Shown here piece by piece: positions 7,835 to 64,000 of a stretch of DNA of 64,000 bases. Every line of letters starts with the position of its first letter. The first letter of the stretch is position 1. The stretch is from an uncultured Pirellulales bacterium (GTDB taxonomy: Bacteria; Planctomycetota; Phycisphaerae; Sedimentisphaerales; Anaerobacaceae), in contig CAYQXM010000015.1 of assembly GCA_964421295.1 (NCBI GenBank), forward strand, positions 769 through 64,768, read 5' to 3'. Position numbers and translations under genes: made by a program. The notes beneath the pieces are model-generated. The model was not told where the DNA came from. It saw only the letters and a list, made by a program, of their open reading frames with translations, and did not search any database.

Positions 7835-7837
7835 ACC

Positions 7838-12128: not shown

Positions 12129-12143
12129 TTCATTATTCCCTTT

Positions 12144-32154: not shown

Positions 32155-32272
32155 CGACATGTCTGCACTATTATTAAGATCGGCCGGATAGTCTCTGGGA
32201 ATGCCACGTCCGTCATCAGGCCGCCGGGCACCCAGACTGTGGGCCTTTCACCAACTCGGGAAGGAGGAGGTT

Positions 32273-42366: not shown

Positions 42367-42721
42367 GCCCGATCCTCCTGCAAACGCCCGAGGGCTTGAC
42401 GGACTCTTCATACTCCTTCATTATCGTCCCGGCGCGCGACCGGTAAAGCAGAAAGCCCCCGGCGGCACCTGCCCACGCAGATTTTCGGACATTGACATTC
42501 CTCCCGTCCGATAGGAGCAACGCGGGCCCGCAGCCTTGTTTTCCTTGACTTCCGGCCCCAATTGTGATAGAATCACTCTTGTTCACAGGATGGATTGCGG
42601 GCATCTGGAGGCCACCGGGGGATTTGTCGCTCAGAGACGGACCGTCGCCGACGCAGGCGCTGCTGCCGCTCTGTGCCATCCGAGTCATCGGGGAGGGTTG
42701 GGTATTTCACCTGTAAAGGCC

Positions 42722-47439: not shown

Positions 47440-47559
47440 CGTTGGCACTCCCAGGAAGCAAGCGACTATTGCCTGTGCACGAGACTATTCTAAAAGCTCG
47501 TTCCCACAAAAGCAAGAGGGTACCGTGAGGGGCGGACCGTGCTTTATGGCGCATTGATT

Positions 47560-48249: not shown

Positions 48250-48260
48250 GGCCAGAGTCC

Positions 48261-49505
48261 TCAGAAGCTACGCAACAAGTTGGACGGACGTTGGTAGGCC
48301 GCCCAGAACGCCGGGAAGAGACCCGCCAGCAGGCCGCCGGCGACGGACAGGAGAATCGCCAGGAGACAGACCGGCAGCCAGTTGATCCCGGAGGCCGGGA
48401 CACCCATGGGGACCAGCCACCGCGCCAGTAGCCATGGCATGAGGGACGCGACGAGTACGCCGGCAATCAGCGCACCCCCAACCGCCTGCAGCACGGACTC
48501 CAGCACGATCTGTCCCATGATGCGATCGTTGGAGAAGCCCAGCGTCTTGAGGATGCCCAGCTCCCGCCTCCGTTCGACCAGGACCGACAACTGGGCGATC
48601 ATGGCCAGGAGCACGGTGAAGATTCCGATCGCTACGATCAGGACCGCCAGCGCCGCGGTGTTGATGGCCCGCGCCCGGGAGGCGGGTTTGTAGCAGGCGT
48701 AGCTCGATATCACCAGATCGGGGTACAGCGATTTCACTTCCCGGATGGCCTGATCCTGCACGGAGCTGTCTTTGACTTCCACAAGGATCAGGTTGCAGTA
48801 GCCGGCCAGAGGGACATTGGGCAGTTGCGTTGCGACCAGGCGCTCGGCCTGGGCGTAGGGCAGGTAGATATCCGCGCGGGCCGGACGGATGCCGGGGTTG
48901 ATGATGCCCTGGACGATGAAAGCCTCTCCTGCGATACGGAGCGTCTGGTTCACCTTGAGGCCCCGCAATTTGGCATAGGCCTGTTCCACGAGGACCTTGC
49001 CGGTGTCACCCTCCCAGAGGAAGCGTCCCTCGACGATATCCGTGGCCGCACAGCAGGTCGTGCCCACCACCATGGTGTTGTTCGGATCGAAGCCGCCAAC
49101 GGTGAAGAGGTGGTCGTCGTTGGGGTCGCGGAACCGGTATTGCAGATAGCGCGCCGCATCGGCCACGGTGGGCACGGCCCGAATCTTCTCGACAAAGGCA
49201 TGGGGCATCAAGTGGGTCCGCGTGCCGAACGCCACGAGTCCCTCGCTCTTGATCTGGCTGTTGGCCACGGCCATGCATGGTCCACACGCGGCCATGTCCG
49301 CCGGGGCAAAGGCCACGAAATGCGTCCCGGTGTGATCGAGGATTCCAGCACTGCTGCGGCCTGAGGCCTGCAGGACACCGACCAGCACCATCATGCTCGA
49401 CACTGCCAAGGCATAACCCAGGACCGTTGTCAAGGTTCGCGCTTTGCGTTGCCGCAGTTCGCACCAGGCGTGTTGGAGGATCGCACTCATCGCGGGCACC
49501 TGCAT
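48261..49505 (-). CDS. ABC transporter permease, FtsX/MacB type
   Basis: N-terminal TM segment, a large periplasmic domain, and a C-terminal FtsX 3-TM bundle (ELGILKTLGFSN). Confidence 0.82.
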   Translation of the reverse strand: MQVPAMSAILQHAWCELRQRKARTLTTVLGYALAVSSMMVLVGVLQASGRSSAGILDHTGTHFVAFAPADMAACGPCMAVANSQIKSEGLVAFGTRTHLMPHAFVEKIRAVPTVADAARYLQYRFRDPNDDHLFTVGGFDPNNTMVVGTTCCAATDIVEGRFLWEGDTGKVLVEQAYAKLRGLKVNQTLRIAGEAFIVQGIINPGIRPARADIYLPYAQAERLVATQLPNVPLAGYCNLILVEVKDSSVQDQAIREVKSLYPDLVISSYACYKPASRARAINTAALAVLIVAIGIFTVLLAMIAQLSVLVERRRELGILKTLGFSNDRIMGQIVLESVLQAVGGALIAGVLVASLMPWLLARWLVPMGVPASGINWLPVCLLAILLSVAGGLLAGLFPAFWAAYQRPSNLLRSF

Positions 49506-49882
49506 GAAGTCCTCTTCGAGGAACGTCCCTTACGAGCCACCGCCATAATCGTATCCACGGATTGGCGATAGGCTTTCAAAGTCTCGGTCCATTGGTCCAG
49601 ACAGGCCCGGCCGCGGGGCGTCAAGGCGTATTTCCTCCGCATGGGTCCGGTCTCGGGCGCCTCCACGCACGAGGAGACCAGGCCCTCTTCTTCCATGACC
49701 TTGAGAGTCCGATAGACCCCCGAGTGATCGGGCCCTTCCTCCGCCAGCGGCATCATGGCCTTGAGGCGCTCGGTGATGACATAGCCGTGGGTCGGCCCCT
49801 CCGCCAGCACGGCCAGCGCCGCCGGGCGCACGAGCTTGGCCAGCGATTTGCCGGTGCAGGCGCACGCGGTAAAGTCCATCAT
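49487..49882 (-). CDS. PadR-family transcriptional regulator
   Basis: GPTHGYVITERLK...GVYRTLKVMEEEGLV winged-helix motif. Its 3' end overlaps the permease start by 19 nt. Confidence 0.78.
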   Translation of the reverse strand: MMDFTACACTGKSLAKLVRPAALAVLAEGPTHGYVITERLKAMMPLAEEGPDHSGVYRTLKVMEEEGLVSSCVEAPETGPMRRKYALTPRGRACLDQWTETLKAYRQSVDTIMAVARKGRSSKRTSCRCPR

Positions 49883-50030
49883 GAGACTCCTTCAACTATG
49901 TGAGTAGGTCCAATAGCAACGGATCATACCCCGCGTGCATGAAGGGGTCAACGAGATTTTCCTCCATGTCCGCTCTCCACCGCCCGGTCCAGCTTTTCAG
50001 ATGCGGCTCCTCAAAGACGAACGCCCTTGC

Positions 50031-50148
50031 CGGACGGACATACTGTCCATCCTCAATGACGCCCTCCAACGCTCATGAGCATCACCTTTTACTAAACGCA
50101 GTGGCATGACCGGCGTTTCATTTTTCTGCCCCGAAATCTGTCAACGAT
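50031..50148 (-). repeat. Inter-paralog spacer, copy 1 (3'-flank part only; sits between the last paralog and padR)
   Basis: cggacatactgtccatcctcaatgacgccctccaacgctcatgagcatcaccttttactaaacgcagtggcatgaccggcgtttca... aligns with 55360-55475 and 57316-57416. Confidence 0.75.
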
Positions 50149-51957
50149 CTACTCCGCCGGCGTGCGGCTGGCTTCGCCAGTATCGCCGTAGGCGCCCTGG
50201 TTCACCCGGCCGCCGTTGGGAGCAGGCTCCAGGGTGAAGACCGCGTTCAGATCGCCGGCGTCGATGCAAGGGCTGGTCACGTCGTCCAGCACCCACGAGG
50301 CGGTCTGGGGATTCCAGTGTCCGGCCTTGGACTTGAGGTGGCAGTCTCCGAGGACGTAGGCGTTTGGATCGGTCCAGGTGCCTGAAGTCACGAACAGTGG
50401 GTCGGCATCGACATTGCCCTGGCCCGTGAAGCCGCCCTGCACATCCGAGTAGGATACAGTGACATTGCCTTTGATCTGGGCATTGTTCACCGAGACCCCG
50501 TTGCCGGAGAGGATCGAATTGGACACCGTGATCCCGTCGCCGTCCAGAGCGTAGCCCCGGTTTTGGGTGATCGTGCCATGGGCGAGGTCGACCGTGCTGT
50601 AGACGAGGCGTCGGCCCTTCACGGGCAGCGAGGATAGACCTGTCCCGCCGTTGCCCGCGATGATGCAATGGTCCAGGCTGAGGGTGCTCTCATTGCTGAC
50701 CTCGACGCCGCAGTCCCGGTTGCCCGTGATGACGCACGCACTCAGGTTCAGCTCGGCCCCCGCGCAGACGATGCCGTCGGCGCCGCCGGTGATCGTCAGG
50801 CCCTGGAGGGAGCGCAGGGCCGTCCCGGCGGACAGAGTCACGACCGCCGTGCTGCCGTCGCCCACGAGGCGGGTCAGAGACACCACCGCCGAATCCTGGG
50901 GATTGGTCGAGCGGATCGTCAGCGGGATGTTGGGGAGAGTGATGGTCTCTTTGTACGTGCCGGGTGAGACCTCGATAATGTCGCCGGACTGGGCGTAGTT
51001 GATCGCGGCTTGGAGGGAGGTGAAGCGCACGCCGGTGGAGAGATTGCCGATCGGACCGTTGGGATCGGGTAGGAAGGCCGTGACACTCACCCAGTAGATG
51101 TTTCTTTCTCCAGCCGAGTTGGCACGGGAAAAGAACAGATATCTGTAATCCGGGGATAGACAAGGGGAATCCTCAGATCCTGAGGTATTAAAGGTGGGTC
51201 CCAGGTTTCGAGGGGTAGCCCATCCCCCCAGGCCATCTGCAAAACTGACATAAAGATCCACCGCTCCAAAACCACCGGGGCGACCGGACATGAGGACCAC
51301 ATACTCCTCGTTAGGTCCGGGTACAGCCGCGCAATCATAGCTGTTGCTGTTTAGGTCGAGCTGGTTTTGGGCATCTGTAAACTGCCCCTCTGAAGACCTG
51401 ATTCGATACAGATCGCATGCGCCCCGTCCGCCGGGACGCCACGAACACATCCACATGTTCCCAAGGCTGGAGATATGGCAACTGGCACTGCCATTCAACC
51501 CAGACGGATTGATGTTGACTGGGGCAGGCAGGGTCTCCGGACTGGACCACTCCTGTATCCCCGATCCAGCCGGGGACCTGTGGACCCTGTAGATAGTGGA
51601 GTCCCGGAGGAAGTACAGGGATTGATCATTGTCCGCCAGGCTCGGGCAAGAAGTCAGACTGTCTAAGTATGGGGCCTTCACGGGCGTGGTCCAGAGTCCA
51701 CCTTCATATCTTGTGACCATAATTTGACCCGCTGGAGAAGACACATCGAAATAGCATTCCCGCCCGTCCTTGGTGAAGCAGATATTACCTTCACCACGGT
51801 TGGGAAGGCAGATCATCCCCGGCGCAAAAACCTTGGGCGTTAGTCCCGGCGGTTCCTGACCCATATAGGGCAGGGGACTGTTGCTGTCTGCCGCGAGGAC
51901 CGGCATGGTCGCCCACAGGACGATCCAGCCGACTATTCTTGTCTGTCGAGCCTTCAT
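50149..51957 (-). CDS. Secreted PD40/TolB-like beta-propeller + right-handed beta-helix protein (array paralog 1)
   Basis: Signal peptide MKARQTRIVGWIVLWATMPVLAADSN. PD40-type repeats (RPGGFGAVDLYVSF, FFSRANSAGERNIYWVSV). Helix part IRSTNPQDSAVVSLT...LQGLTITGGADGIVC. C-terminal DADPLFV...CIDAGD...NGGRVNQGAYG. Confidence 0.8.
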   Translation of the reverse strand: MKARQTRIVGWIVLWATMPVLAADSNSPLPYMGQEPPGLTPKVFAPGMICLPNRGEGNICFTKDGRECYFDVSSPAGQIMVTRYEGGLWTTPVKAPYLDSLTSCPSLADNDQSLYFLRDSTIYRVHRSPAGSGIQEWSSPETLPAPVNINPSGLNGSASCHISSLGNMWMCSWRPGGRGACDLYRIRSSEGQFTDAQNQLDLNSNSYDCAAVPGPNEEYVVLMSGRPGGFGAVDLYVSFADGLGGWATPRNLGPTFNTSGSEDSPCLSPDYRYLFFSRANSAGERNIYWVSVTAFLPDPNGPIGNLSTGVRFTSLQAAINYAQSGDIIEVSPGTYKETITLPNIPLTIRSTNPQDSAVVSLTRLVGDGSTAVVTLSAGTALRSLQGLTITGGADGIVCAGAELNLSACVITGNRDCGVEVSNESTLSLDHCIIAGNGGTGLSSLPVKGRRLVYSTVDLAHGTITQNRGYALDGDGITVSNSILSGNGVSVNNAQIKGNVTVSYSDVQGGFTGQGNVDADPLFVTSGTWTDPNAYVLGDCHLKSKAGHWNPQTASWVLDDVTSPCIDAGDLNAVFTLEPAPNGGRVNQGAYGDTGEASRTPAE

Positions 51958-52035
51958 GATTTCACTCCTCAATGATTAAGACTCCCGTCAGGCGGACACA
52001 CTGTCCATCGTCAATGACGCCCTCCGACACGAACT
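51958..52035 (-). repeat. Inter-paralog spacer, copy 2 (5'-leader part only)
   Basis: gatttcactcctcaatgattaagactcccgtcaggcggacacactgtccatcgtcaatgacgccctcc aligns with 55328-55395. It diverges beyond that point. Confidence 0.65.
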
Positions 52036-52194
52036 GGAGTCACCGTCAACCCGGTAGCATGGCCGGCTTTTCAACCTTACCATCCCGGAATCTCTCGCGG
52101 CGTTTCATGTCTCTGGCGAATTACGTAGAAATAATCCAGAATAAAGTTGAAGCGCATAGGCCAATGTCGGGATAACAATGTCAGACGAGTCCAA

Positions 52195-53517
52195 ATGGGC
52201 AAACAGACTGACGATCTCGAGATGATTCGGCAGGCCCGTCTCGGCAATCGGGACAGTATGTCTCGTCTCGCCGAGACGGCCCGGGGGAAGGTCTTTGTTT
52301 ACCTGTACCGCGTCACGCTCAACTATCACCTGGCGCAGGACCTTTCACAGGAGACGATCCTGGAGATGCTGAAATCCCTCCCACGATTGAAGATTGACGG
52401 CGCCAGTCTATTCTGGTCTTGGCTGTATCGCACGGCCCTGGGAAAATTCCAGCACCACTTCAGATGCCAGGGCGATCGGAGAGTCGAGCAGAAGACCGTA
52501 TTCAGCGACGCCGAACTATTGGACCACATCGGCAAAGACGACCAGAGCGGCCTGGAAGCACTCTTGCGCAAGGAGCTTTCACAAGTGGTCTTCAAGGCGA
52601 TGAGCGGGATGAGGATCGCGCACCGGAACGTTCTGACGTTGCGGTGTTTCAACGATATGTCGTATGCCCAAATCGCCGCGGTGATGGGCGTTTCGGAAAT
52701 ACAGGCCCGGTTGCAGTTCTTTCGTGCCAAGCAGTCGCTGAAAAAACAACTGGCTGAAAGTGGATACAAGAAGGAGTATCTGCTGCCCGCACTTGGCTTG
52801 TTTGGCACCATCACGGGTTTTTCCGTTAAATCCGCCGCGGCAGCTGCCCCTGTGGGTCCGGCCGCGATGGACATCGGCGTGCCTGCCGCCGCCCTTGGCG
52901 TCGCCACCTCCAAGACAGGGATTCTCATGATTGCCGCTGCGTTGATGGCGGTATCGGCGGGTGTCGCGACGGTTGCAGCGCGAAAGGAAATCGCCGTTTA
53001 TCCTCCTCCCAGCAGGATGCTCTCAGGCCCCGCGGCTGCCGCAGTATTTGAGAGTCCTTCGCGTCTGCTCTTTGCGGCCGACCCGGACAACAACGGATGG
53101 AAGGCGGCGCATCATCTGAAGCCAACGGAACCTGCCGTTCCCATTCGACCTGAAGACCTCCTCCTGGGCCATCGCAAACGCAGCTTCGCCGATCTGGCTG
53201 TAATCCTCCCGCAAGGGCACACGCTGGTCTTCCGCTTTTCCGGCGAAGTCGCAAATAGTCAGGGGACAAGCATCTGCTATGAGGGAAGGATAACCGGCAA
53301 GCTGCCTCGCCTGGTCGTTGGCGACGGCGTGTCACGAGAAGTCGAGGTTACCTCCGCGCCGAGCGTTGAGAATCTTGAAAACGGCTATCAACTGATTGGT
53401 TATGACATTGCGAATCTGCCCTACAAGCCCCGCACGGTGGTTCTCACCGGAGTCGACAACGCGGGCCCATGGGGCGGCGTCGAACTTTCCGGGGTGTGGG
53501 CCAGACTCTCCAGGTAG
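52195..53517 (+). CDS. ECF-type sigma-70 factor with a C-terminal two-TM and ~170-aa extracytoplasmic extension
   Basis: Region 2 (YLYRVTLNYHLAQDLSQETILEM). Region 4 HTH (MSYAQIAAVMGVSEIQARLQFFRAKQSLKKQL). Then TM segments YLLPALGLFGTITGFSV and GILMIAAALMAVSAGVATVAA. Confidence 0.75.
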   Translation: MGKQTDDLEMIRQARLGNRDSMSRLAETARGKVFVYLYRVTLNYHLAQDLSQETILEMLKSLPRLKIDGASLFWSWLYRTALGKFQHHFRCQGDRRVEQKTVFSDAELLDHIGKDDQSGLEALLRKELSQVVFKAMSGMRIAHRNVLTLRCFNDMSYAQIAAVMGVSEIQARLQFFRAKQSLKKQLAESGYKKEYLLPALGLFGTITGFSVKSAAAAAPVGPAAMDIGVPAAALGVATSKTGILMIAAALMAVSAGVATVAARKEIAVYPPPSRMLSGPAAAAVFESPSRLLFAADPDNNGWKAAHHLKPTEPAVPIRPEDLLLGHRKRSFADLAVILPQGHTLVFRFSGEVANSQGTSICYEGRITGKLPRLVVGDGVSREVEVTSAPSVENLENGYQLIGYDIANLPYKPRTVVLTGVDNAGPWGGVELSGVWARLSR

Positions 53518-53533
53518 GCCGTGACCTGTTTGT

Positions 53534-55327
53534 CTACTCCACCACCGTGCGGCTGGCCTCGACTGTGCCGCCGTAGGCACCCAGGTTCGCCCGGCCGCCG
53601 TTCGGCATCGGTTCAAGGTTGAAGACAGCGTTCGGATCGCCCGCATCGATGCACAGGCTGGTCACCTCGTCCAGGATCCAGGCGAGGGTCTTGGGGTTCC
53701 AGTGGCCGGCCTTGGACTGGAGATGATAGTCTCCCGCAACGTAAGTGTTCGGATCGGTCCACGTGCCGGAAGTCACGAACAGTGGATCGGCGTCGATATT
53801 ACCCGGGCCTGTGAAGCCATCCTGTATGTCCGAGTATGATATGGCGACATTGCTGCTCTTGCTTTGGATGTTACCAGTTGTGAGACCGTTGCTGCAGAGG
53901 ATCGAATTGGTGACTGTGATCTCTTCCCCGTCCAAGGCGCAGCCCCGGTTCTGGGTGATCGTGCAATGAGCGAGATTGACCTTGCTGTAGACCAGGCGCC
54001 GGCCCTTCACAGGTACCGAGGACAGGCCTGCCCCGCCGTTGCCCGCCACGAGGCAATGATCCAGATTCAGTGTGCTCTCCTGACTGACCTCGATGCCGCA
54101 GTCGCGGTGGCCCGTGATGACGCAGGAACTCAGACTCAACTTGGCCCCGGCGCAGACGATGCCGTCGGCGCCGCCCGTGATGGTCAGGCCCTGGAGTGAG
54201 CGCAGGGCTGAACCCGGCGCGAGTGTCACGACCGCCGCGGTTCCATCGCCCGTGGCGCTGGTCAGCGAGACGACCGCCGAATCCTGGGGATTGGTCGAGC
54301 GGATCGTCAGCGGGATGTTGGGCACAACGATGTTTTCTTGGTACGTGCCGGGCGAGATCGAGATGACCTGGCCCGACTCGGCGTAGTTGATCGCCGTCTG
54401 AATGGAGGCGAAGCGCTGCCCGGAGGTGAGATTGTAGATCGGCCCGTTCGGATCAGGCAGAAACGCCCCGACGCTGACCCAGTAGATATTCGTATCTGTA
54501 GAGGCATCCTCGCGGGAGAAGAACAGATATTTGTGGTCCGGCGAGAGGGATGGAACCGCGTCATGCTTCGATGAATTGATGATCGGCCCCAGGTTCCTGG
54601 GCGCGGTCCAGCCGCCTTGGCCGTCCGGGAAACCGATGTAGAGATCAACGCCGCCGAAACCCCCGGCGCGGTCGGAATGAAAGACCACGTAGTCCTCGTT
54701 GGGCCCCGGCACGGGCTGACAATCAGCGGACGAGAGATTGAGGCTGGCGAGGTTCGTAGCCTGCGTGAACTGCCCACCGGCAAAAGAGACCCGCCACACA
54801 TCGCACCCGCCCATCCCTCCGGCACGGTGCGAACAGATCCACAGGTTCCCCAGGGTGGAGATGTGACAACTCCACTCGGCCGCGCTGGAACTGGCCGGTT
54901 CCGCCACGAATTCCGGCTGGGACCATCCTTGGGCGGTTCGGCGGACTCTCCAGATATCCATGCTCCGGTTGAAATACAGGGTCTGATCCCCGTCCGCGAG
55001 ATCCGGGCACAGGGATTGAGTGTTGGAGAACGGCGCCACGACCGGTGAGGTCCACTGTCCGTTCTCATAGCGCATGACCAGGATGTGAGCGCTCGACCAG
55101 TCCGCGGCGCGCACGGCGAGATAACACTCCCGCCCATCCTTGCTGAGGCACAGACTGTGCTCGCAGCGGTTGGCAACGCTGATGAGTCCGGGCGCGAAGA
55201 GCTTGGGCACGAATCCCGGCGGCTCCTGGCCCATATAGGGCGGGACACCATTGCTGTCCGCCGCAAACACAGGACAGGCTGCCAGCAGGACGATCCAACC
55301 GACCATTCTTGTTTTTCGAGCCGTCAT
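53534..55327 (-). CDS. Secreted PD40 propeller + beta-helix protein (array paralog 2)
   Basis: ATG at 55327 follows GAGGAG. MTARKTRMVGWIVLLAACPVFAADSNGVPPYMGQEPPG. Same domain order as paralog 1. Confidence 0.8.
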   Translation of the reverse strand: MTARKTRMVGWIVLLAACPVFAADSNGVPPYMGQEPPGFVPKLFAPGLISVANRCEHSLCLSKDGRECYLAVRAADWSSAHILVMRYENGQWTSPVVAPFSNTQSLCPDLADGDQTLYFNRSMDIWRVRRTAQGWSQPEFVAEPASSSAAEWSCHISTLGNLWICSHRAGGMGGCDVWRVSFAGGQFTQATNLASLNLSSADCQPVPGPNEDYVVFHSDRAGGFGGVDLYIGFPDGQGGWTAPRNLGPIINSSKHDAVPSLSPDHKYLFFSREDASTDTNIYWVSVGAFLPDPNGPIYNLTSGQRFASIQTAINYAESGQVISISPGTYQENIVVPNIPLTIRSTNPQDSAVVSLTSATGDGTAAVVTLAPGSALRSLQGLTITGGADGIVCAGAKLSLSSCVITGHRDCGIEVSQESTLNLDHCLVAGNGGAGLSSVPVKGRRLVYSKVNLAHCTITQNRGCALDGEEITVTNSILCSNGLTTGNIQSKSSNVAISYSDIQDGFTGPGNIDADPLFVTSGTWTDPNTYVAGDYHLQSKAGHWNPKTLAWILDEVTSLCIDAGDPNAVFNLEPMPNGGRANLGAYGGTVEASRTVVE

Positions 55328-55475
55328 GATCCCACTCCTCGAACATTGAGACTCCCGCCAGGCGGACACAACGTCCATCCTCAATGACGCCCTCCAACGC
55401 TCATGAGCATCACCTTTTACTAAACGCAGCGACACGGCCGGCGTTTCAATTTTCGCCCGGAAATGTGCTGATTGT
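55328..55475 (-). repeat. Inter-paralog spacer, copy 3 (complete)
   Basis: Near-identical to 57282-57416 apart from a 13-14 nt indel (tcatgagcatcac). Confidence 0.8.
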
Positions 55476-57281
55476 CTACTCCATCGGCGTGCGGCTGGCT
55501 TCGGTCGTGTTGCCGTAGGCGCCTAAATTCGCCCGACCGCCGTTGGGCGCGGGCTCCAGGCTGAAGCTCGCCGTCGGATCGCCCGCATCGATGCAGGGAC
55601 TGGTCACGTCATCCGGAACCCAGATACTCGCGTTGGCGTTCCAGTGGCCCGCCTCTGACTTGAGATGATGATCGCCGGCGACGTACGTATTCGGATCAGC
55701 CCAACTGCCCGATGTCACAAACAGCGGGTCGGCATCGGTGTTGCCCTGGCCCGTGAAGCCACCCTGCACGTCCGAGTAGGAAATGGCGACGTTGCTGCTC
55801 TTGCTCTGGACGTTGCCTGTCGCCAGGCCGTTGCCGGAGAGGATCGAATTGGACACCGTGATCCCGTCGCCGTCCAGGGCGTAGCCGCGATTCTGGGTAA
55901 TCGTGCAATGGTTGAGGTCCACCTTGCTGTAGACGAGGCGTCGACCTTTTACGGGCACCGAGTACAGGCCCGCCCCACCGTTGCCCGCCAGGATGCAGTG
56001 ATCCAGACTCAGCATGCTCTCGTTGCTGACCTCGATGCCACAGTCCCGATTGCCCGTGAGAACGCAGGAGCTCAATTTCAATTGCGCCGCGGTGCAGACG
56101 ATGCCGTCCGCGCCGCCGGTGATCGTCAGCCCCTGGAGGGAGCGCAGGGCTGAACCCGGTGCGAGTGTCACGACCGCCGAGGTTCCGTCGCCCACGGCAC
56201 TAGTCAGGGAGACGACCGCCGAATCCTGGGGATTGGTCGAGCGGATCGTCAGCGGGAGATTGGGCACTACGATGTTCTCGTGGTACGTGCCCGGCGCGAT
56301 CGAGATGACCTGACCCGACTCAGCGTAGTTGAGCGCCGCCTGGATGGAGGCGAAGCGCTGGCCGGTGGAGAGATTGTAGACCGGTCCGTTCGGATCGGGC
56401 AGGAAGGCCTTGACACTCACCCAGTAGATATTCGAATCATTGGAGGTCTCGCGGTTGAAGAACAGATACCTGTAATCCGGCGATAGGGAAGGGCCTCCTT
56501 CACTCCTTGAGGAATTGATGATCGGCCCCAGATTTCGAGGTGCTGTCCAGCCGCCATGGCCGTCGGCAAGACTGATATAGAGGTCTATGCCTCCGAACCC
56601 ACCCGGGCAGTCGGACTGCCAGATGACATACGCCTCATCCGGTCCGGGTACGGGGTAACAGTCACTGGCCGTGGTGTTGAGGCTGCGAAGGTCCGTGGCC
56701 TCGGTAAACTGCCCGTTTGCGGACTGGATCCGCCACAGATCGCACTGACCTACACCCCCTGTGCGCCAAGAACAGATCCACATGTTCCCAAGGCTGGAGA
56801 TACTGCAACTGGGCGCGCCCTGCGGTGAAGTGACTGGGGCAGGCACGACCTCCGGTTGGGACCAGGCCTGGATCCCCGATCCGGTCAGGGATCGGTGGAC
56901 CTTCCAGATACTGCGGTCTCGGCTGAAATACAGGGATTGATCGTTGTCTGTCAGGGACGGGGATTGGGATTGACTGTTTGAGAACACCGCCTGTACCGGA
57001 GAGGTCCATTGCCCGTTCTCGTAGCGCGTGACCATGATCTGGACGGTCGACCAATTGGCAGCCGGAACGGTGATATAACATTCCCGCTCGTCCTGGCTGA
57101 GGCAAATGCTGTGTTCAAATCGGTTGGGAAGGCTGACGAGCCCTGGGGCAAAGACCTTGGGCGTCAGCCCCGGCGGCTCCTGGCCCATATAGGGCGGGAC
57201 ACCATTGCTGTCCGCCGCAAACACAGGACAGGCTGCCAGCAGGACGATCCAACCGACCATTTTTGTTTTTCGAGCCTTCAT
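55476..57281 (-). CDS. Secreted PD40 propeller + beta-helix protein (array paralog 3)
   Basis: ATG at 57281. MKARKTKMVGWIVLLAACPVFAADSNGVPPYMGQEPPG; residues from MVGW through EPPG are identical to paralog 2. Confidence 0.8.
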   Translation of the reverse strand: MKARKTKMVGWIVLLAACPVFAADSNGVPPYMGQEPPGLTPKVFAPGLVSLPNRFEHSICLSQDERECYITVPAANWSTVQIMVTRYENGQWTSPVQAVFSNSQSQSPSLTDNDQSLYFSRDRSIWKVHRSLTGSGIQAWSQPEVVPAPVTSPQGAPSCSISSLGNMWICSWRTGGVGQCDLWRIQSANGQFTEATDLRSLNTTASDCYPVPGPDEAYVIWQSDCPGGFGGIDLYISLADGHGGWTAPRNLGPIINSSRSEGGPSLSPDYRYLFFNRETSNDSNIYWVSVKAFLPDPNGPVYNLSTGQRFASIQAALNYAESGQVISIAPGTYHENIVVPNLPLTIRSTNPQDSAVVSLTSAVGDGTSAVVTLAPGSALRSLQGLTITGGADGIVCTAAQLKLSSCVLTGNRDCGIEVSNESMLSLDHCILAGNGGAGLYSVPVKGRRLVYSKVDLNHCTITQNRGYALDGDGITVSNSILSGNGLATGNVQSKSSNVAISYSDVQGGFTGQGNTDADPLFVTSGSWADPNTYVAGDHHLKSEAGHWNANASIWVPDDVTSPCIDAGDPTASFSLEPAPNGGRANLGAYGNTTEASRTPME

Positions 57282-57416
57282 GATCCCACTCCTCGAACAT
57301 TGAGACTCCCGCCAGGCGGACACAGTGTCCATCCTCAATGACGCCCTCCAACGCCTTTACTAAACGCAGTGGCATGACCGGCGTTTCAATTTTCTACCCC
57401 GAAATCTGCCAACTAG
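57282..57416 (-). repeat. Inter-paralog spacer, copy 4 (complete)
   Basis: See copy 3. Confidence 0.8.
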
Positions 57417-59027
57417 CTACTCCGCCGGGGTGCGGCTGGCTTCGGCGGTCCCACCGTACGCGCCGAGATTCGCCCGGCTGCCGTGCGGAACAGGCTCTCG
57501 ATCGAAAGCCGCACTCGGATTGCCCGCATTGGTGGTGTCGTCCAAGACCCAGGTGCAGGTCCTGAGATTCCAATGGCCGACTTGAGACTTGAGGTGGTAG
57601 TCTCCCAGGGTGTAGGTGTTCGGATCGGTCCAGGTGCCCGCGGCTGCAAACAGGGGATCAGTATCAATGCTCTCCTGCCCGGCAAAGCCGCCCTGGACGT
57701 CTGAGTACGATACATAGAGGTTGTTGCCCTTGATCTGCATGTCCCCGTTGCTGTAGAGGATCGAGTTGGCCACCGTGATCCCATCGCCCCCCAGGCCATA
57801 ACCTCCGTTCTGGATCAGGCGGCACTGGTTGAGGTTTACCTTGTTGACCTTGACCAGTCCCCTGCCCCTGGTCTTGGGTACGGACCGAAGCCCGGCCGCT
57901 TTGTTGCCGGCCACGATGCAGTGGTCCAGACTGAGGGTGCTCTCTGCAGGTACCGGGCGAGAGCTGGAGACAATCGCCGGACTGGGCGCAGTTGACCCCG
58001 GTCTGGATGGAGCCGAAGCGCTCACCGGTCGAGAGATTGACGACTGGGCCATTTGGATCGGCAATACGGATCGAGCATCCACCCAGTACACATCATGGTC
58101 GTGATCGGGAGTCCAGCGGGTGAAGAAGAGGTACTGGCCATCTCGCGAGAGCATCGGGAACCGTTCCATCCGGTCCGTATTGATTGGTTCGCCCAGGCTG
58201 ACGGGATCGGTCCAACTGCCGTCCGCCAGGCGGCTGATGTAGAGATCGCCATCACCGCGGCTGGGATCGCGCCGGTCCGAGGAGAACAGCAGGTAGCTCT
58301 CGTCCGGCGCAATGAACGGTGTCCAGTTCAGGAAGGGAGGAAGGTTAATGCTGCGAGGGAGCAACTCCGGTTTTGCGTACTCGCCATTGGCGAGCTCCGT
58401 CCGGTAGATGCCGTAATCGTTGAGCGGACCGGGCGTGTAGCCCGTGAAGTAGAGGGTGCCGTTGCGAGTGAAAGAGGGACCACTAACCGATTTCAGTTCA
58501 GGAAAGACGGTCAGGAGCCCCAGGGATCTTCGTTCGCTCCAGCCGTTCCCCGTCTTCTCGACATATACGATGTCGTAGACTCTGGAGCCGCCGGAGGGTG
58601 GCGGAGCCGCGTCCGCCGAGCCGAAGTAGAGACGTTTCCCATCGGGTGAGAAAACCGGCCCGCCATCGACGAATTTGCCCGAGAATGGAGCCACGGTCGG
58701 CACCGACCACGTGCCGCTTTCGCGCCGCATGGTCATGATCACCTGCGGCTCCCCTTTGTCGGGCCACCGCCACAGGGACCAGAAGACCTCGTTGCCGTCC
58801 GGCGAAAATGCCGGCGCACTGTGTTCGAGGTGGTCGGTCGACACGATCCCGCGGGCGAAGACCTGCGGCGTGGCGCCGGGTGGAGGCTGACCCAGATAGT
58901 CGCACGCAACTTGAGACCTTGTGTCGAGCTTGCCCCCAAGGTCGGTGATCCGAGACCCGGCTTCCACCTGGCCCTTGGACACCTCCTGCGCCAGGAGCAC
59001 TGTGATCAGTAGTCCGACAGGCGTCAA
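57417..59027 (-). CDS. Divergent PD40/TolB-like propeller + truncated beta-helix protein (array paralog 4; rearranged)
   Basis: The propeller belongs to a different subfamily (APAFSPDGNEVFW, VFSPDGKRLYF, LFSSDRRDP). It has a Ser/Pro linker, then only the last helix rungs and the shared C-terminal module. Non-ATG start: TTG at 59027, overlapping the upstream stop by 4 nt. Confidence 0.65.
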   Translation of the reverse strand: MTPVGLLITVLLAQEVSKGQVEAGSRITDLGGKLDTRSQVACDYLGQPPPGATPQVFARGIVSTDHLEHSAPAFSPDGNEVFWSLWRWPDKGEPQVIMTMRRESGTWSVPTVAPFSGKFVDGGPVFSPDGKRLYFGSADAAPPPSGGSRVYDIVYVEKTGNGWSERRSLGLLTVFPELKSVSGPSFTRNGTLYFTGYTPGPLNDYGIYRTELANGEYAKPELLPRSINLPPFLNWTPFIAPDESYLLFSSDRRDPSRGDGDLYISRLADGSWTDPVSLGEPINTDRMERFPMLSRDGQYLFFTRWTPDHDHDVYWVDARSVLPIQMAQSSISRPVSASAPSRPGSTAPSPAIVSSSRPVPAESTLSLDHCIVAGNKAAGLRSVPKTRGRGLVKVNKVNLNQCRLIQNGGYGLGGDGITVANSILYSNGDMQIKGNNLYVSYSDVQGGFAGQESIDTDPLFAAAGTWTDPNTYTLGDYHLKSQVGHWNLRTCTWVLDDTTNAGNPSAAFDREPVPHGSRANLGAYGGTAEASRTPAE

Positions 59028-60691
59028 CCGCGCTTTCGTTTTTTCACCTCCGGCTCCGTTGGAGAATCAGGCGATGTTGTCGCCAGCGTTTGCTCCCGGA
59101 CGTAGTGGAATCGCTCGCCGATTGCGATTCCTCCCTCCGGATAGAACACCGGAACGTTGCGGGCCTTCAGAACTGCGACGCACTTCTTGTGTTCTTCGGT
59201 GACGAGGTCGTCGCCTATCAAATAGATGGCCTTCGGCGAGAGCTGGTCCATCAGGTAGAGGTAGGGTTCGTAGGCAACCGTGATATGACGGCCCGTGATG
59301 GGCAGGATCGCGATGTCGATCGGACCGAAAGCCTTCAGGGCGTCGATCTCTTTACGGTATTTCTCCACCTGGGAGGCGCTGTTGTTCGGGGCCGCGTGAA
59401 GTCCGGCGTGGAAGACCTTCACTCCATCGGCTTCGACGAGATAGCCAAAGCCTTCCATGCCGGGAAAGTAGCGACGCATCGCCGTCGTATGGACCCCGAT
59501 CCCGCCCACGGCGAAGGCCTCGCCGGGTTTGGCGAGTCGATAGGGCGGAATGTCCCCTTCGGGCGCGGCGTCGCCCACGAATATGAGATTGGAGGGCCGA
59601 GGGGCGGTCGGATCGGAGTCCAGTATGAAATCGGCGCCCGGCATTCGCTTCGCCAGCCTGGAAAGGCCCATTCCAGAGGCAAACACGGTGATCCTCTGAC
59701 CTGCCAGTTCGTCGGACGCCAGATGCCCGTTAGCCAACCCCGACTCCGGTGATTCATTTATCCGTACCGGAGGACGGAAGAGAAGCAGGTGTTCCTTCGT
59801 CTTCACGGCAAAGCTGGAGCAAGGGGAGCCGCCGCCCATGTACCAGAGATAGGCCTCGCCTTCCTTGAGGGCTTCGGTGAGCTGCGGCGATTTGCCGTAG
59901 TTGGCCTCGACGATGGCGCTCTTGTCTGCTCCAGCGGTGATCAATGCATCGGCCGCCTTGCGATGGCCGTGTCTGGCGGCATAGTAGAGCGGCGTATGAC
60001 CATACTCGTTTGTGGCGTTGACCCCTGCGCCGTGCCTGATCAGGAGCGGCACCAGATCCGCGCTGCCCCTCATGGCCGCCAGATGGAGTTCGGTGTTGCC
60101 GAAGCTGAATTCCTGAAGTCTCGCTCCGTTTTCGAGGAGCCACTTGGCCATTTCCTCGTTTGGACCTTGATAAATGGCCATTTGCAGGGGAGTGCCTTCC
60201 AGGGTGTTGACGTTGATGTCTGCGCCGTGATCGATCAGGAACCTGGCTTTCTTGAGGTTGCCCATCTTGGCGATACCGCTGAAGATTGTCCAGTTGCGAT
60301 GGGTAGATAGTTTCGCGTTGATGTCGGCCCCCTTGGCAAGGAGACGTTCAGCAAGATCGACGTTGAAATCCTCACGCGGATGATCGATGACCCCGTACAA
60401 CGGTGTTACACCTATCTTGTTCCCGGCGTTGACGTTGGCGCCCCTGTCGATGAGGAAATTGGCGACCGCCGCCTGAGATGCAGCGCACGCCCTACCGAGC
60501 GATGTGTCGCCATTGTTGTCTTTCGACTCCAACAACGTTGGATCGGCTTCAAGGAGCGTCTTCACCTTGTTCAGATCGCCGCCAGCGGCCGCGTCGTGGA
60601 TCTCTCCCGCACGCAGACCAGCGGCAAGGAGGCTCATCCCGGCCAGGATAACCGTTATGTGGACTACTCTGACAGACTTGAATGTTCCCAT
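59024..60691 (-). CDS. Secreted ankyrin-repeat + metallo-beta-lactamase-fold protein
   Basis: ATG at 60691 follows AAAGGA. Signal MGTFKSVRVVHITVILAGMSLLAAGLRA. ~8 ANK repeats. The C-terminal MBL-like part (GYLVEADGVKVFHAGLHA...IDIAILPITG) is a UlaG/Lactamase_B_3-like pattern recalled from memory. Confidence 0.65.
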   Translation of the reverse strand: MGTFKSVRVVHITVILAGMSLLAAGLRAGEIHDAAAGGDLNKVKTLLEADPTLLESKDNNGDTSLGRACAASQAAVANFLIDRGANVNAGNKIGVTPLYGVIDHPREDFNVDLAERLLAKGADINAKLSTHRNWTIFSGIAKMGNLKKARFLIDHGADINVNTLEGTPLQMAIYQGPNEEMAKWLLENGARLQEFSFGNTELHLAAMRGSADLVPLLIRHGAGVNATNEYGHTPLYYAARHGHRKAADALITAGADKSAIVEANYGKSPQLTEALKEGEAYLWYMGGGSPCSSFAVKTKEHLLLFRPPVRINESPESGLANGHLASDELAGQRITVFASGMGLSRLAKRMPGADFILDSDPTAPRPSNLIFVGDAAPEGDIPPYRLAKPGEAFAVGGIGVHTTAMRRYFPGMEGFGYLVEADGVKVFHAGLHAAPNNSASQVEKYRKEIDALKAFGPIDIAILPITGRHITVAYEPYLYLMDQLSPKAIYLIGDDLVTEEHKKCVAVLKARNVPVFYPEGGIAIGERFHYVREQTLATTSPDSPTEPEVKKRKRG

Positions 60692-60732
60692 GACCTGTTC
60701 CTTTCCTATATCTGTTTGGACTCCCATCAGGT

Positions 60733-62541
60733 TTAAGGAACAATCGTCAAGGGAGACGGCGATGTGCTCGCCTCGGTGGTATTGCCGTAGGCACCCAAGT
60801 TCACCCGGCCGCCGTTCGGAGCAGGCTCTCGATCGAAGGCCGCACTCGGATCGCCGGCGTCGATACACGGGCTGGTCACCTCGTCCAGGACCCAGGTGCC
60901 CGTACGCGGATGCCAGTGACCGGCCTTCGACTTGAGGTGGTGATCACCGGGGACATACGCGTTCGGATCCGCCCAACGGCCGGACGTCACGAACAGCGGA
61001 TCGGCGTCGATGTTGCCCTGACCCGCGCAGCCGCCCTGCACGTCGGAGTACGATATCGTGACATTGCTGCTCTTGCTTTGGACGTTCCCGGTCGTCAGAC
61101 CGTTGTCGTAGAGGATCGAGTTGGCGACGGTGATCTCGTCGCCGTCCAGGGCGTATCCGCGATTCTGGGTGATCGTGCAATGACTGAGATCCACCTTGCT
61201 GCAGATGAGGCGTCGGCCCTTCACGGGGATTGAGTACAAAGCCGTCCCGCCATTGCCGGCGATGATGCAGTGATCCAGACTCAGCGTGCTCTCCTGACTG
61301 ACCTCGACGCCACAGTCTTTGTGGCCCGTGATGACGCACGAACTCAGGTTCAGCTTGGCACCCGCGCAGACGATACCGTCGGTGCCGCCGGTGATGGTCA
61401 GGCCCTGGATGGAGCGTAGGGCTGACCCCGCCGCGAGTGTCACGACCGCTGAGGTTCCGTCGCCCGTGGCGCTGGTCAGGGAGACGACCGCCGAGTCTTG
61501 GGGATTGGTCGAGCGGATCGTCAGTGGAATGTTAGGCACGATCAGGTTTTCTTTGTAGGTCCCGGGCGAGATGGAGATGACCTGGCCCGCCTCGGCATAG
61601 TTGAGCGCCGTCTGAATGGAGGCGAAGCGCTGCCCGGAGGTGAGATTGTAGATCGGCCCGTTCGGATCAGGCAGAAACGCCCAGACGCTGACCCAGTAGA
61701 TGTTCGTGTCCGTGGAGGTGTCGTCGCGGCAGAAGAACAGGTATTTGTAGTCCGGTGAGAGATAAGCGGCCCCTTCGTGCTTCGACGAGTTGATGATCGG
61801 TCCCAGGTTGCGGGGGGCGGTCCACCCGCCCTGACCGTACGGGAAGCTGAGGTAGAGATCCGCGCCGCCCAAGCCCCCGGCACAATCGGAATTCCAGATG
61901 ACGTAGCTCTCATCCGGTCCCGGTGTGGGCGAACAATCATTGCCCGAGGTGTTGAGGCTGCGCAGATTCGTCGCCTCGGAGAACTGACCGTCTACCGGCT
62001 TGATGCGCCATAAATCGCACACCCCGGCCCCGCCGGTACGATGCGAGCAGATCCAGGCGTTGCCGAGGTCGGAGATGCAGCAACTCCACTCACTCTGGGC
62101 GGAGCTGATGGGGTCAGGCACGGCCTCGGGCTGAGACCACCCCAGGCCCTCTCTGCGGACCCGGTAGATGTGGCGGTTCCGGCCGAAATAGAGAATCTGA
62201 TCGTTGTCGGCCAGGCTGGGCGAGAGCGATTTACTGTCGGAGAAGGAGGCCAGCACCGGAGTGGTCCATTGCCCGTTCTCGTAGCGAGTCACCATGATCT
62301 CATATACGGTCCAGGCCGCATTGCGAATCATGAAATAGCACTCCCGCCCGTCCCGGCTGAAGCAGAGACTGTTGTCGCAGCGGTTGGCCACACTGATGAA
62401 TCCCGGCGCGAAGATCCTGGCCGTCAGTCCCGGCGGCTCCTGGCCCATATAGGGCGGGACATTGTTACTGTCCGCCCCGAGAACCGAGGATGTCACCAAC
62501 AGGACTACCCAGCCAATGGTTCTGGTTACGTGCGCGTTCAT
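60733..62541 (-). CDS. Secreted PD40 propeller + beta-helix protein (array paralog 5)
   Basis: MNAHVTRTIGWVVLLVTSSVLGADSNNVPPYMGQEPPG. Same architecture as paralogs 1-3. The ATG at 62541 directly abuts the upstream stop. Confidence 0.8.
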   Translation of the reverse strand: MNAHVTRTIGWVVLLVTSSVLGADSNNVPPYMGQEPPGLTARIFAPGFISVANRCDNSLCFSRDGRECYFMIRNAAWTVYEIMVTRYENGQWTTPVLASFSDSKSLSPSLADNDQILYFGRNRHIYRVRREGLGWSQPEAVPDPISSAQSEWSCCISDLGNAWICSHRTGGAGVCDLWRIKPVDGQFSEATNLRSLNTSGNDCSPTPGPDESYVIWNSDCAGGLGGADLYLSFPYGQGGWTAPRNLGPIINSSKHEGAAYLSPDYKYLFFCRDDTSTDTNIYWVSVWAFLPDPNGPIYNLTSGQRFASIQTALNYAEAGQVISISPGTYKENLIVPNIPLTIRSTNPQDSAVVSLTSATGDGTSAVVTLAAGSALRSIQGLTITGGTDGIVCAGAKLNLSSCVITGHKDCGVEVSQESTLSLDHCIIAGNGGTALYSIPVKGRRLICSKVDLSHCTITQNRGYALDGDEITVANSILYDNGLTTGNVQSKSSNVTISYSDVQGGCAGQGNIDADPLFVTSGRWADPNAYVPGDHHLKSKAGHWHPRTGTWVLDEVTSPCIDAGDPSAAFDREPAPNGGRVNLGAYGNTTEASTSPSPLTIVP

Positions 62542-64000
62542 CTACTTGCTTCCTCCTTTCATATCGGACAGAAAAGCTGCCATGCCGACCCAGTAGACAT
62601 CCGCCTCGGTCGGGGTTTCACGGACGAAGAAGAAATACTTCTGATCCGGCGACAGATAGGGGCTGGTCTCGTGGTCCGGGGAGTTGATGGCCGACCCCAG
62701 GTTTTTCGGCGTGGTCCATCCGCCCTGGCCGTCGGGGAAACTGATGTAGAGGTCCATCCCCCCGAGACCGCCGGGCCGATCGGCGCTGAACACCACATAG
62801 GTTTCATTGGGGCCCGGCACCGGGGAACAGTCCAATTCCGGGGTGTTCAGGTTACGAAGGTTCTGGGCCTCGTTGAACTTACCGTCCGCGGACTTGACCC
62901 GCCACAGATCGCACTTGCCCACGCCGTCGGGGCGCCACGAACACGTCCAGAGGTTCCCCAGGCTGGAAACGTGACAACTGAACTCTTCTTTAGGAGAGTT
63001 GGCCGGCGCAGCCAGAGCTTCTGGTTGGGACCACCCTTGCGTTGTCCTCCGGACTCTGCAGATATCCAGGTCCCGGCAGAAGTACAGGGTCTGATCGTTG
63101 TCGGCCAAAGATGGGCACGAGGAGCGACCGGTGGAGAATGGCGCCAGCGCCGGTGAGGACCACTGTCCATTCTCAAATCGCGTCACCATGATCTGCGAGG
63201 TGGACCAGTTTGCCGCGCGCACCCTGAAGTAACACTCCCGGCCGTCCTGGCTGAGACAGATGCTGCCTTCGAATCGCTTGGGGGCACTGACGAGGCCCGG
63301 AGCGAAGATCTTGGGCGTCCGTCCCGGCGGCTCCTGGCCGAGATAGAGCGGGGCCGTATTGCTGTCTGCTGCCACACTTGGCAGTGCCGCAATCGGGTCG
63401 GACAGGAAAGCCTGAACGCTGACCCAGTAGATACTCCCCTCACCAGCGACATTTCTGCTGAAGAAGAGATACTTGCCGTCGGGTGAGAGCGAGGGGGCGT
63501 CTTCCCAATCCGGCGTGTTGATGGCAGGGCCCAGGTTCTTCGGACTGGTCCAACCTCCCTTGCCGTCGGCGAAAGCGATGTACAGATCACCGTTGCCGAT
63601 GCCACCGGGACGATTGGATCTCAGGATAACGTACTTCTCGTCCGGACCCGGGACGGCCGCGCAATCGCTGGCATCGCTGTTGAGGGCAAGCTGGTTCTTG
63701 GGCTCCGTGAATTGTCCATCCTCGAAACGTAGCCGCCACAGATCGCACTGGCCGAGTCCGCCTTCACGCCACGAGCAGATCCACATGTTGCCCAGGCTGG
63801 AGATATCGCAACCCACGTTGCCGTTGGCGTCTGGCTTGAGGTTCACCGGGGCGGGCATAACCTCCGGTTGCGACCAGCCCTGCCCGGTTCGTCGGACTTT
63901 CCAGATGGTGTATTTCTCATGGATGAAGTAAACAGACCGATCGTTGTCCGCCAGGCACGGCCCGTAACACTTGTCGTCTGAGAATGAAGCCGGCGCGGGC
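62542..64000 (-). CDS. Multi-propeller fusion protein (at least 3 PD40 propeller modules, no beta-helix); 5' end lies beyond the right edge
   Basis: The track ORF starts at 63858, but hand translation of 63859-64000 in the same frame stays open (PAPASFSDDKCYGPCLADNDRSVYFIHEKYTIWKVRRTGQGWSQPEV) and is homologous to the paralogs. Confidence 0.7.
   Translation of the reverse strand, partial: PAPASFSDDKCYGPCLADNDRSVYFIHEKYTIWKVRRTGQGWSQPEVMPAPVNLKPDANGNVGCDISSLGNMWICSWREGGLGQCDLWRLRFEDGQFTEPKNQLALNSDASDCAAVPGPDEKYVILRSNRPGGIGNGDLYIAFADGKGGWTSPKNLGPAINTPDWEDAPSLSPDGKYLFFSRNVAGEGSIYWVSVQAFLSDPIAALPSVAADSNTAPLYLGQEPPGRTPKIFAPGLVSAPKRFEGSICLSQDGRECYFRVRAANWSTSQIMVTRFENGQWSSPALAPFSTGRSSCPSLADNDQTLYFCRDLDICRVRRTTQGWSQPEALAAPANSPKEEFSCHVSSLGNLWTCSWRPDGVGKCDLWRVKSADGKFNEAQNLRNLNTPELDCSPVPGPNETYVVFSADRPGGLGGMDLYISFPDGQGGWTTPKNLGSAINSPDHETSPYLSPDQKYFFFVRETPTEADVYWVGMAAFLSDMKGGSK

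Follow-up and report, generated by a model that had tools for sequence, protein, structure and literature searches.

The 64,000-nucleotide stretch analysed here (the window) belongs to an uncultured Pirellulales bacterium (GenBank assembly GCA_964421295.1, contig CAYQXM010000015.1, positions 769 to 64,768). Its right-hand part (50149-64000) carries six homologous genes, all on the minus strand and designated A–F, which are built around a PD40 propeller; a gene for an extracytoplasmic function (ECF) sigma factor lies on the opposite strand between A and B. We propose, with a probability of about 0.5, that a conserved envelope-signalling module of Planctomycetota has had its target gene expanded in tandem in this lineage; the output of the module, and possibly its co-sensor, would be secreted glycan-binding or glycan-processing proteins. 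The proposal was based on the observed gene order, synteny, promoter-like motif, domain folds, and age and selection of the copies. The array itself had been described in an earlier note made from the sequence alone, and six same-strand paralogs were confirmed by open reading frames and homology.

The sigma factor and its pairing with propeller genes

It was found that homologs of the window sigma factor (73–100% coverage, 30–55% identity over the aligned part, C-terminal part included) adjoin propeller or propeller-helix genes in eight other loci (L002, L004, L011, L012, L013, L014, L048 and L062), which come from metagenome-assembled genomes (MAGs) of Phycisphaerae, Sedimentisphaerales, Pirellulales and other Planctomycetota. 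A sigma homolog in locus L082 faces an 877-aa protein bearing this PD40 propeller. The recurrent pairing, together with the shared motif and the downstream MacB-type ABC transporter described below, suggested that the sigma factor belongs with the propeller genes and probably regulates them, and is not an insertion among them. Read in this way, the array is a probable expansion of the target gene of the sigma factor. The earlier note had taken the sigma gene for a divergently placed, membrane-anchored insert; its orientation and predicted membrane anchor were borne out, but the insertion was not, as the pairing recurs across Planctomycetota.

The sigma protein scored 36.8 bits for PF04542, 33 bits for PF08281 and 69.3 bits for TIGR02937 (cut-off 42.9), and no match to sigma-3 or sigma-1 domains was obtained. 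Judged by these domains, it is an ECF (group 4) sigma-70 factor. One strong hydrophobic segment, predicted by hydropathy to be transmembrane, spans residues 243–262 of 440 and is kept in the homologs. It is followed by a conserved domain of ∼175 residues predicted to lie outside, for which Pfam and PDB searches gave no relative; the PDB profile search hit only designed Kelch repeats, which were judged spurious as they arose through a short repeated motif. No anti-sigma domain (zinc-finger/ZAS or FecR-like) was detected by Pfam between sigma-4 and the transmembrane helix.

In close relatives, which are 40–60% identical to the sigma factor in the core, the outside domain has been exchanged. After the transmembrane helix, P0155, P0156, P0158 and P0164 carry CBM9, and P0167, P0191, P0195 and P0196 carry a beta-lactamase/PBP-like domain (PF00144). 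In P0160 the outside domain is a PD40 propeller with 54% identity to that of C, a fusion that connects the propeller with the sigma pathway on its extracytoplasmic side.

IutY (ECF243) and SCO4117 (ECF52) were reported to combine an ECF core, a transmembrane segment and an extracytoplasmic sensor and to be activated by proteolysis, and the extracytoplasmic domain of SCO4117 binds carbohydrate (PMC8999054). The window sigma factor resembles them in its one transmembrane helix and outside domain, and the CBM9 of its relatives occupies the same place. It differs from them in that no anti-sigma region was detected by Pfam, its outside domain is of no known family, and its phylum and targets are different. 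Planctomycete ECF57 sigma factors bear WD40-like C-terminal extensions (PMC8999054), and C-terminal extensions vary among duplicated Planctomycetes ECFs (PMC7671368). The variable extension, which may be a beta-propeller, is common to ECF57 and the present family, P0160 being such a sigma-propeller fusion; however, the propeller is here normally a separate secreted protein encoded by the divergent gene.

A bipartite promoter-like motif, GAAAC-N15/16-GGGAT (counted as GAAAC-N15/16-GGAT), occurred 24 times in the window and 19 Planctomycetota loci, compared with 3.7 ± 1.8 occurrences expected. Eight of the 11 other sigma homologs are preceded by it (L002, L004, L012, L048, L062, L082, L083 and L084). 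The last three loci were fetched by sigma homology alone, so that their motifs provide an independent check, and in all three the motif is directly upstream of the sigma gene. Back-to-back motifs between the sigma and propeller genes were observed in L002, L004, L012 and the window. Ten propeller genes are preceded by the motif at a consistent distance, and an FtsX gene in L063 is preceded by it as well. With its AAC-containing −35 element and conserved −10 element, the pattern appeared in silico to fit an autoregulated ECF-type promoter. An initial pattern taken from the B and C spacers (GAAAC-N16-CGTT) was not conserved in other genomes and was replaced by the present one. Matches with one mismatch were also observed in antisense (plus strand) inside the propeller coding sequences of A, B, C and E (50879-50903, 54267-54291, 56209-56233 and 61481-61505); they are probably a by-product of conserved codons.

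The motif of the array forms part of an element of ∼150 nt that is present in four minus-strand copies, one upstream of each of A, B and C and one orphan copy. The element comprises the bipartite motif, an invariant GGAGGGCGTCATTGA.GATGGAC, a palindrome GGAC-N5-GTCC and a GAGGAG ribosome-binding site. Over ∼100 nt the orphan copy is 91% identical to the spacer upstream of B (which is that downstream of C), and it may have been left behind by a deleted paralog or produced by conversion. A structured RNA leader had been considered on account of the stem CATTGAG/CTCAATG in the B and C copies, and was dropped because the A and orphan copies do not keep this stem; Rfam gave no match within 47000-64000.

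Composition and age of the array

The four intact genes A, B, C and E encode proteins of ∼600 aa with 69–75% pairwise amino-acid identity. Each consists of a Sec-type signal peptide (ending in AADSN in A, B and C and in GADSN in E), the motif PPYMGQEPPG, a PD40 propeller of ∼265 residues, a linker (IYWVSV.AFLPDPNGP), a short right-handed beta-helix with the motifs IRSTNPQDSAVVSLT and LQGLTITGG.DGIVC, and a conserved tail of ∼80 residues (DADPLFV...GD.HL...SPCIDAGD...NGGR.NLGAYG). The common architecture that had been attributed to all six genes is thus complete in these four, but D is a chimera with a divergent propeller, and F has no helix. PD40, Beta_helix (PF13229) and Disaggr_assoc (PF08480) exceeded the Pfam cut-offs. 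The PF08480 scores were 34.3, 23.6, 25.7 and 25.4 bits for A, B, C and E, respectively, against a gathering cut-off of 22.6; the mechanism of this family is itself undefined. A lipoprotein signal suggested by 'LAAC' in B and C was rejected because A, E and the family consensus lack the cysteine. The positions of all elements are listed in Table 1.

Table 1. Positions of the array genes, regulatory elements and adjoining genes in the window
Feature	Position	Strand	Remarks
Secreted ankyrin protein, ∼930 aa	44644-47439	-	17 Ank repeats; signal peptide; directly downstream of the ABC genes
ABC ATPase	47560-48249	-	PF00005, 108.7 bits
FtsX/MacB_PCD permease	48261-49505	-	PF12704, 52.5 bits; PF02687, 39.7 bits
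PadR	49487-49882	-	Pfam
Sigma-70-type promoter-like site before PadR	49923-49951	-	TTGACC-N17-TATGAT; similar TTGACC-N17-TAGCAT before PadR in L001
Orphan fourth spacer copy, between A and PadR	50000-50126	-	Repeat family D17; GCGTT box at 50095; no gene of its own
Paralog A	50149-51957	-	Open reading frame and translation; Pfam Beta_helix and Disaggr_assoc; 69% identity to C; divergent from the sigma gene
Degenerate second motif upstream of A	52048-52073	-	GAAAA-N15-GGGTT
Exact motif upstream of A	52082-52106	-	GAAAC-N15-GGGAT; same motif precedes propeller genes in nine other loci
Sigma-side motif	52149-52173	+	GAAGC-N15-GGGAT, one mismatch; ends 21 nt before the sigma ATG
ECF sigma factor, 440 aa (P0121)	52195-53517	+	Pfam, NCBIfam TIGR02937, hydropathy; homologs P0121-P0197
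Paralog B	53534-55327	-	Full length; 74.6% identity to C
Spacer element upstream of B	55328-55475	-	TTGAAAC-N15-GCGTT at 55423-55448; invariant GGAGGGCGTCATTGAGGATGGAC, palindrome, ribosome-binding site
Paralog C	55476-57281	-	Full length; copy used for the AlphaFold2 model
Spacer element upstream of C	57282-57416	-	Motif at 57363-57388
Paralog D	57417-59027	-	Chimera; start codon overlaps the ankyrin/MBL stop codon
Secreted ankyrin-repeat protein with weak MBL-like (Lactamase_B_3) C-terminal domain	59024-60691	-	Pfam; signal peptide
Paralog E	60733-62541	-	Full length; ATG immediately after the F stop codon
Paralog F	62542-64000, extends ∼275 nt past the window edge	-	Double-propeller fusion (P0027, 577 aa)

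Segments found by tblastn over the whole window revealed no further copies. It had been claimed that the array continues beyond the right edge, which was observed for F alone; the source contig is 66,922 bp long, so that at most 2.9 kb is missing there.

Deletion, a frameshifted linker and fusion, all of which the earlier note had pointed out, were found in D and F. The propeller of D shares 34% identity with those of the neighbouring copies, and 40–51% with propellers of loci from other phyla. Its linker and helix start (58059-57937, 41 codons) are homologous to the other copies yet out of frame, ∼80 codons of the helix have been lost, and over the final 180 residues identity to the other copies is ∼60%. 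Judged from these comparisons, D is a chimera in which an ankyrin-associated propeller, of the kind found in other phyla, stands before remains of the linker that lie out of frame and the C-terminal half of the local helix and tail. In F, a signal peptide is followed by two propellers with a relic 'AADSN' between them. The junction, which reads '...IYWVSVQAFLSDPIAALPSVAADSNTAPLYLGQEPPG...', indicates that a deletion took out one helix together with most of one signal peptide and thereby fused two adjacent copies. The D tail and both F propellers gave dN/dS values of 0.12–0.34 (D 0.21–0.26) with dS above 0.9, indicating that the rearranged genes look maintained and not decaying.

Pairwise comparison of A, B, C and E gave dS values of 0.66–0.97 and dN/dS values of 0.18–0.31, and the duplicates are old and under purifying selection. 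The propeller was the most diverged part (dN 0.22–0.36) and the helix the most conserved (dN 0.08–0.16). Recent duplication, as had been suggested, did not agree with these values, and D and F are also old. Long identical DNA stretches that include signal peptides and spacers were seen as claimed, with runs of up to 93 nt, but they are modest against an overall DNA identity of 67–77% between the copies. The longest runs were 93 nt between B and C (signal peptide) and 77 nt between B and E (linker), and runs of 50 nt were found for A/B and A/C inside the helix region. B and C are 95–99% identical over ∼200 nt of upstream spacer and signal peptide, with a dS of 0 in the first 30 codons, and the spacers downstream of A, C and D are 90–95% identical over ∼100 nt.

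By a permutation test on runs of concordant polymorphic sites, three tracts of 74–93 nt were significant (global p ≤ 0.0002), namely the B/C spacer plus signal peptide, the B/E linker, and the spacers downstream of A, C and D. These tracts are consistent with local gene conversion, which the earlier note had put forward and which seems to be the simplest reading of the identity within coding sequences; for the spacers, selection on the regulatory element is an alternative. Ancient copies free of conversion tracts had been named in that note as a result contrary to its proposal, and only the first half was observed: the copies are old, yet carry significant identity tracts. When 35 homologs of other assemblies were included in a neighbour-joining tree, the four copies of the window clustered with only 42% bootstrap, a value at which the tree cannot separate lineage-specific expansion from concerted evolution.

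Mosaic identity of this kind, the fusion and chimera derivatives D and F, and relatives labelled 'predicted outer membrane repeat protein' would also be expected of an exchangeable set of surface or matrix proteins, such as adhesins, which is diversified by gene conversion and has its regulators nearby by accident. We consider this very improbable. All the copies are old and kept under purifying selection, the tracts of identity are short and located in spacers, signal peptide and linker instead of exposed variable parts, and the sigma/ABC synteny and the shared motif are conserved across genomes.

Domain folds and possible functions

The AlphaFold2 model of C had a mean pLDDT of 82.7, and both the propeller and the helix were modelled with confidence. 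The closest PDB folds of the propeller were TolB structures (E 1e-8, 15% identity). The PD40-repeat propeller is what the window proteins have in common with TolB; they differ from it in having no TolB N-terminal domain (TIGR02800 at most 24.4 bits against a cut-off of 343). They also share the PD40 propeller and partial NCBIfam matches with OmpA proteins of the PorE/CHU_0125 type, but possess neither the OmpA domain nor TPR (57 bits against a cut-off of 620).

When the helix was searched alone by Foldseek, the closest structures were CE8 pectin methylesterases, PL6 lyases, epimerases, GH87 and phage depolymerases. The helix has the same fold and PbH1-like repeats as carbohydrate-active beta-helices (CE8, PL6, PL9, AlgE epimerases and phage depolymerases), and the similarity is weak. 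The likeness to the Methanosarcina disaggregatase-related domain (PF08480) is above cut-off in A, B, C and E, and PF22842 (Pel9A-like) was obtained as a weak precomputed match only. LRR matches from the PDB sequence search of the helix domain were spurious. No PDB sequence relative of the helix was found, and no curated family (Pfam, NCBIfam) or named homolog yielded a function, in agreement with the earlier statement that the proteins belong to no described family or enzyme class; the weak Foldseek matches did not alter this.

The Foldseek ranking of the helix (CE8, PL6, GH87 and phage depolymerases at the top), the Pel9A-like and Disaggr_assoc matches, and the carbohydrate-active enzymes around propeller-helix genes (GH78, GH35, GH95, GH127, GH31 and an esterase in the neighbourhoods of L001 and L002) would all be in line with secreted enzymes of a new family that degrade polysaccharides as lyases, esterases or hydrolases. 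The array would then provide substrate breadth as in a polysaccharide utilisation locus, which would suit paralogs that differ most in the propeller, and the sigma factor would be a substrate-responsive switch only. This appears unlikely to us, as no curated enzyme family and no PDB sequence relative was reached, and the helix comprises only ∼220 residues, is the most conserved part, and showed no recognised catalytic motif, its catalytic residues not having been examined. In addition, the helix-plus-tail module is joined to many unrelated N-terminal domains, as it also follows MBL, HAF, Fib_succ_major, F5/8C, LRR and dockerin-bearing N-termini. Such a portable module fits a binding or anchoring role as well as an enzyme. 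The propeller is also portable, and was found with CBM6/35, LamG, BlaR1/M56 and OmpA in other proteins.

Several observations weigh against an expanded target gene of a sigma-controlled, glycan-directed module. All sequences derive from MAGs of uncultured organisms. The sigma homolog in L083 has no annotated propeller neighbour, and L001 holds a propeller-helix gene and PadR-ABC genes with no sigma gene nearby. An ECF-type motif common to the spacers, which had been suggested as something to look for, is present in exact form before A and with one mismatch before the sigma gene; at the −10 position of B, C and the orphan spacer, however, GCGTT stands in place of GGGAT (two changes), which makes the sigma dependence of these three less certain. 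E, F, D and the ankyrin/MBL gene have neither the motif nor the spacer element. These genes are packed tightly, the F stop codon abutting the E start and the ankyrin/MBL stop codon overlapping the D start, which suggested that E, the ankyrin/MBL gene and D are probably co-transcribed as one unit starting at or beyond F. As to the P0160 fusion, it could have arisen by a chance sigma insertion like those described for Planctomycetes, the duplicated ECFs of which were reported to gain unrelated C-terminal extensions in this way (PMC7671368). In the protein, the conserved C-terminal 80 residues of C were not confidently modelled (pLDDT below 50), the match of the helix to enzymes is weak (best CE8, E 2e-4, TM 0.40–0.44, 15% identity), and no catalytic residues were identified in the helix, where they were not examined.

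Transporter, ankyrin genes and the proposed pathway

A PadR gene and an ABC exporter had been noted after the array, and Pfam confirmed PadR, an FtsX/MacB_PCD permease and an ABC ATPase. The permease with its separate ATPase makes this a MacB-type ABC transporter. It resembles MacAB, LolCDE, FtsEX and BceAB in having an FtsX permease with the MacB periplasmic core and a separate ATPase, and FtsEX and BceAB also in adjoining extracytoplasmic proteins and a signalling protein. It differs from these systems in that neither an adaptor protein nor a two-component partner was seen beside it; for a MacA-like membrane-fusion adaptor this refers to the annotated flanking genes, as no dedicated search was made. 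In the 3.86-Mb contig that contains L001, a single-copy ortholog with 68% identity is followed by PadR, FtsX and ABC genes as in the window. FtsX genes (with the ABC ATPase where the contig reaches) adjoin the propeller family in L001, L004, L005, L009, L012 and L063, and L063 has the only exact motif before an FtsX-ABC pair.

The conservation of MacB_PCD/FtsX, ABC ATPase and PadR as the downstream partner, and the motif before FtsX in L063, point as well to a module for envelope stress or antimicrobial defence. The sigma factor, a MacB/Bce-like ABC transporter and PadR would there answer a membrane- or wall-active compound, and the propellers would be periplasmic binders, decoys or stabilisers instead of glycan enzymes. 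Fusions of such propellers to BlaR1/M56 sensors (P0099) and OmpA-type envelope proteins, and the beta-lactamase/PBP-like outside domains of the sigma relatives, are compatible with this. Nevertheless, the helix and many fusion partners are of carbohydrate type (CBM6/35, CBM9, LamG, F5/8C), the neighbourhoods are rich in carbohydrate-active enzymes, and several diverged paralogs are not obviously explained by defence; a module of this kind was regarded as improbable.

The ankyrin/MBL gene was found to be secreted and within the array, as had been noted, but an incidental place there was not supported, since at least 16 of the fetched loci, from MAGs assigned to several phyla, have ankyrin homologs next to propeller genes (labelled Acidobacteriota, Aminicenantes, Gemmatimonadota, Bacteroidales, Cytophagales and others). 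The ankyrin/MBL protein was matched over most of its length in L024, L073 and L052, and two of its homologs, in Bacteroidales MAGs beside propeller arrays, have 44–48% identity over ∼550 aa. The propeller-ankyrin association is wider than the Planctomycetota helix fusion. The ∼930-aa ankyrin protein, which consists almost wholly of ankyrin repeats and is encoded directly after the ABC genes, may be part of their unit. No description of the propeller-ankyrin-MBL neighbourhood or of the propeller-helix architecture was found by full-text literature searches.

Tandem arrays of up to ∼12 propeller-only PD40 genes interleaved with secreted ankyrins were observed in L025 (whole locus), L056, L061, L041, L046 and L052, from MAGs with the labels Acidobacteriota, Gemmatimonadota, Aminicenantes and others, and one Acidobacteriota locus has ∼12 propellers and ∼8 ankyrins. 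L024, of a Bacteroidales MAG, encodes a single 1346-aa protein (9164-13204) that combines an MBL domain, two PD40 propellers and ankyrin repeats. A HisKA-HATPase-REC-AraC hybrid regulator (L024, 136-1941; L073, 57-1871) is followed by the propeller array in both loci, and the arrays of these two loci include Fib_succ_major, SBBP and FG-GAP proteins.

Given the breadth of the association, proteins with propeller, ankyrin and MBL-like domains might constitute a widespread, undescribed extracytoplasmic system. In Planctomycetota this system would have become linked to a MacB-type ABC transporter and to membrane-tethered ECF sigma factors of a new class, the novel outside domain of which is exchangeable for the propeller itself. 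The propellers would then be co-sensors or ligand shuttles of a new signalling pathway at the cell surface and not just the output. This possibility is held only tentatively and seems to us rather doubtful.

Elsewhere the window abounds in genes for secreted carbohydrate-related proteins, namely a GH43 plus ricin lectin protein (17411-18967), an FG-GAP/RGL11-like protein (22570-24582), a CBM9 plus F5/8C plus LamG protein (28713-31700), a 1486-aa fn3/PMP-repeat protein (32201-36661) and a GH5 cellulase (40681-42411). The region 6000-14000 has a GC content of 0.55–0.58 compared with 0.62–0.65 elsewhere, and encodes an HNH endonuclease-like protein (6553-7719) as well as an ATPase of the AAA_21/AbiEii type (9209-10405); it may be a mobile or defence island.

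If the array is the expanded target of the envelope-signalling module, the core of the module would consist of the membrane-tethered ECF sigma factor (cytoplasmic sigma-2 and sigma-4, one transmembrane helix and the novel outside domain of ∼175 aa), a divergently encoded, Sec-exported PD40-propeller protein, in the window fused to the short carbohydrate-type beta-helix, and, in most cases, a MacB-type ABC transporter, which PadR may or may not accompany. The sigma domain would be released or activated in response to an extracytoplasmic ligand, for which regulated proteolysis is the likely route by analogy with IutY and SCO4117 (PMC8999054). A glycan is the most likely ligand; the carbohydrate-active enzymes encoded in the window (GH5, GH43 and CBM9/LamG proteins) and around the genes of L001 and L002 speak for the module as proposed. 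The sigma factor would then read GAAAC-N15/16-GGGAT before its own gene and A and, with the variant −10 boxes, probably also B and C; read-through from the orphan spacer into the PadR-FtsX-ABC genes is speculative. The exported propeller-helix proteins would bind or process a polymer outside the cytoplasmic membrane, any catalysis being presumptive.

Planctomycetes contain very many ECF sigma factors with unexplained C-terminal extensions, and the locus provides a concrete candidate regulon for one of them, with a motif, a target family and a transporter; in one natural fusion, the sensor part of the sigma factor and its target protein are joined. The locus also defines an uncharacterised secreted architecture, a propeller plus a carbohydrate-type helix, in polysaccharide-degrading Phycisphaerae, the assignment to which was based on named relatives. 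Regulons of ECF sigma factors that carry a sensor as C-terminal extension are of a known kind, and what is new is the uncharacterised target family and the wider propeller-ankyrin association. If the ligand is a glycan, the module would correspond in planctomycetes to the sigma/anti-sigma systems by which Bacteroidetes control their polysaccharide utilisation loci.

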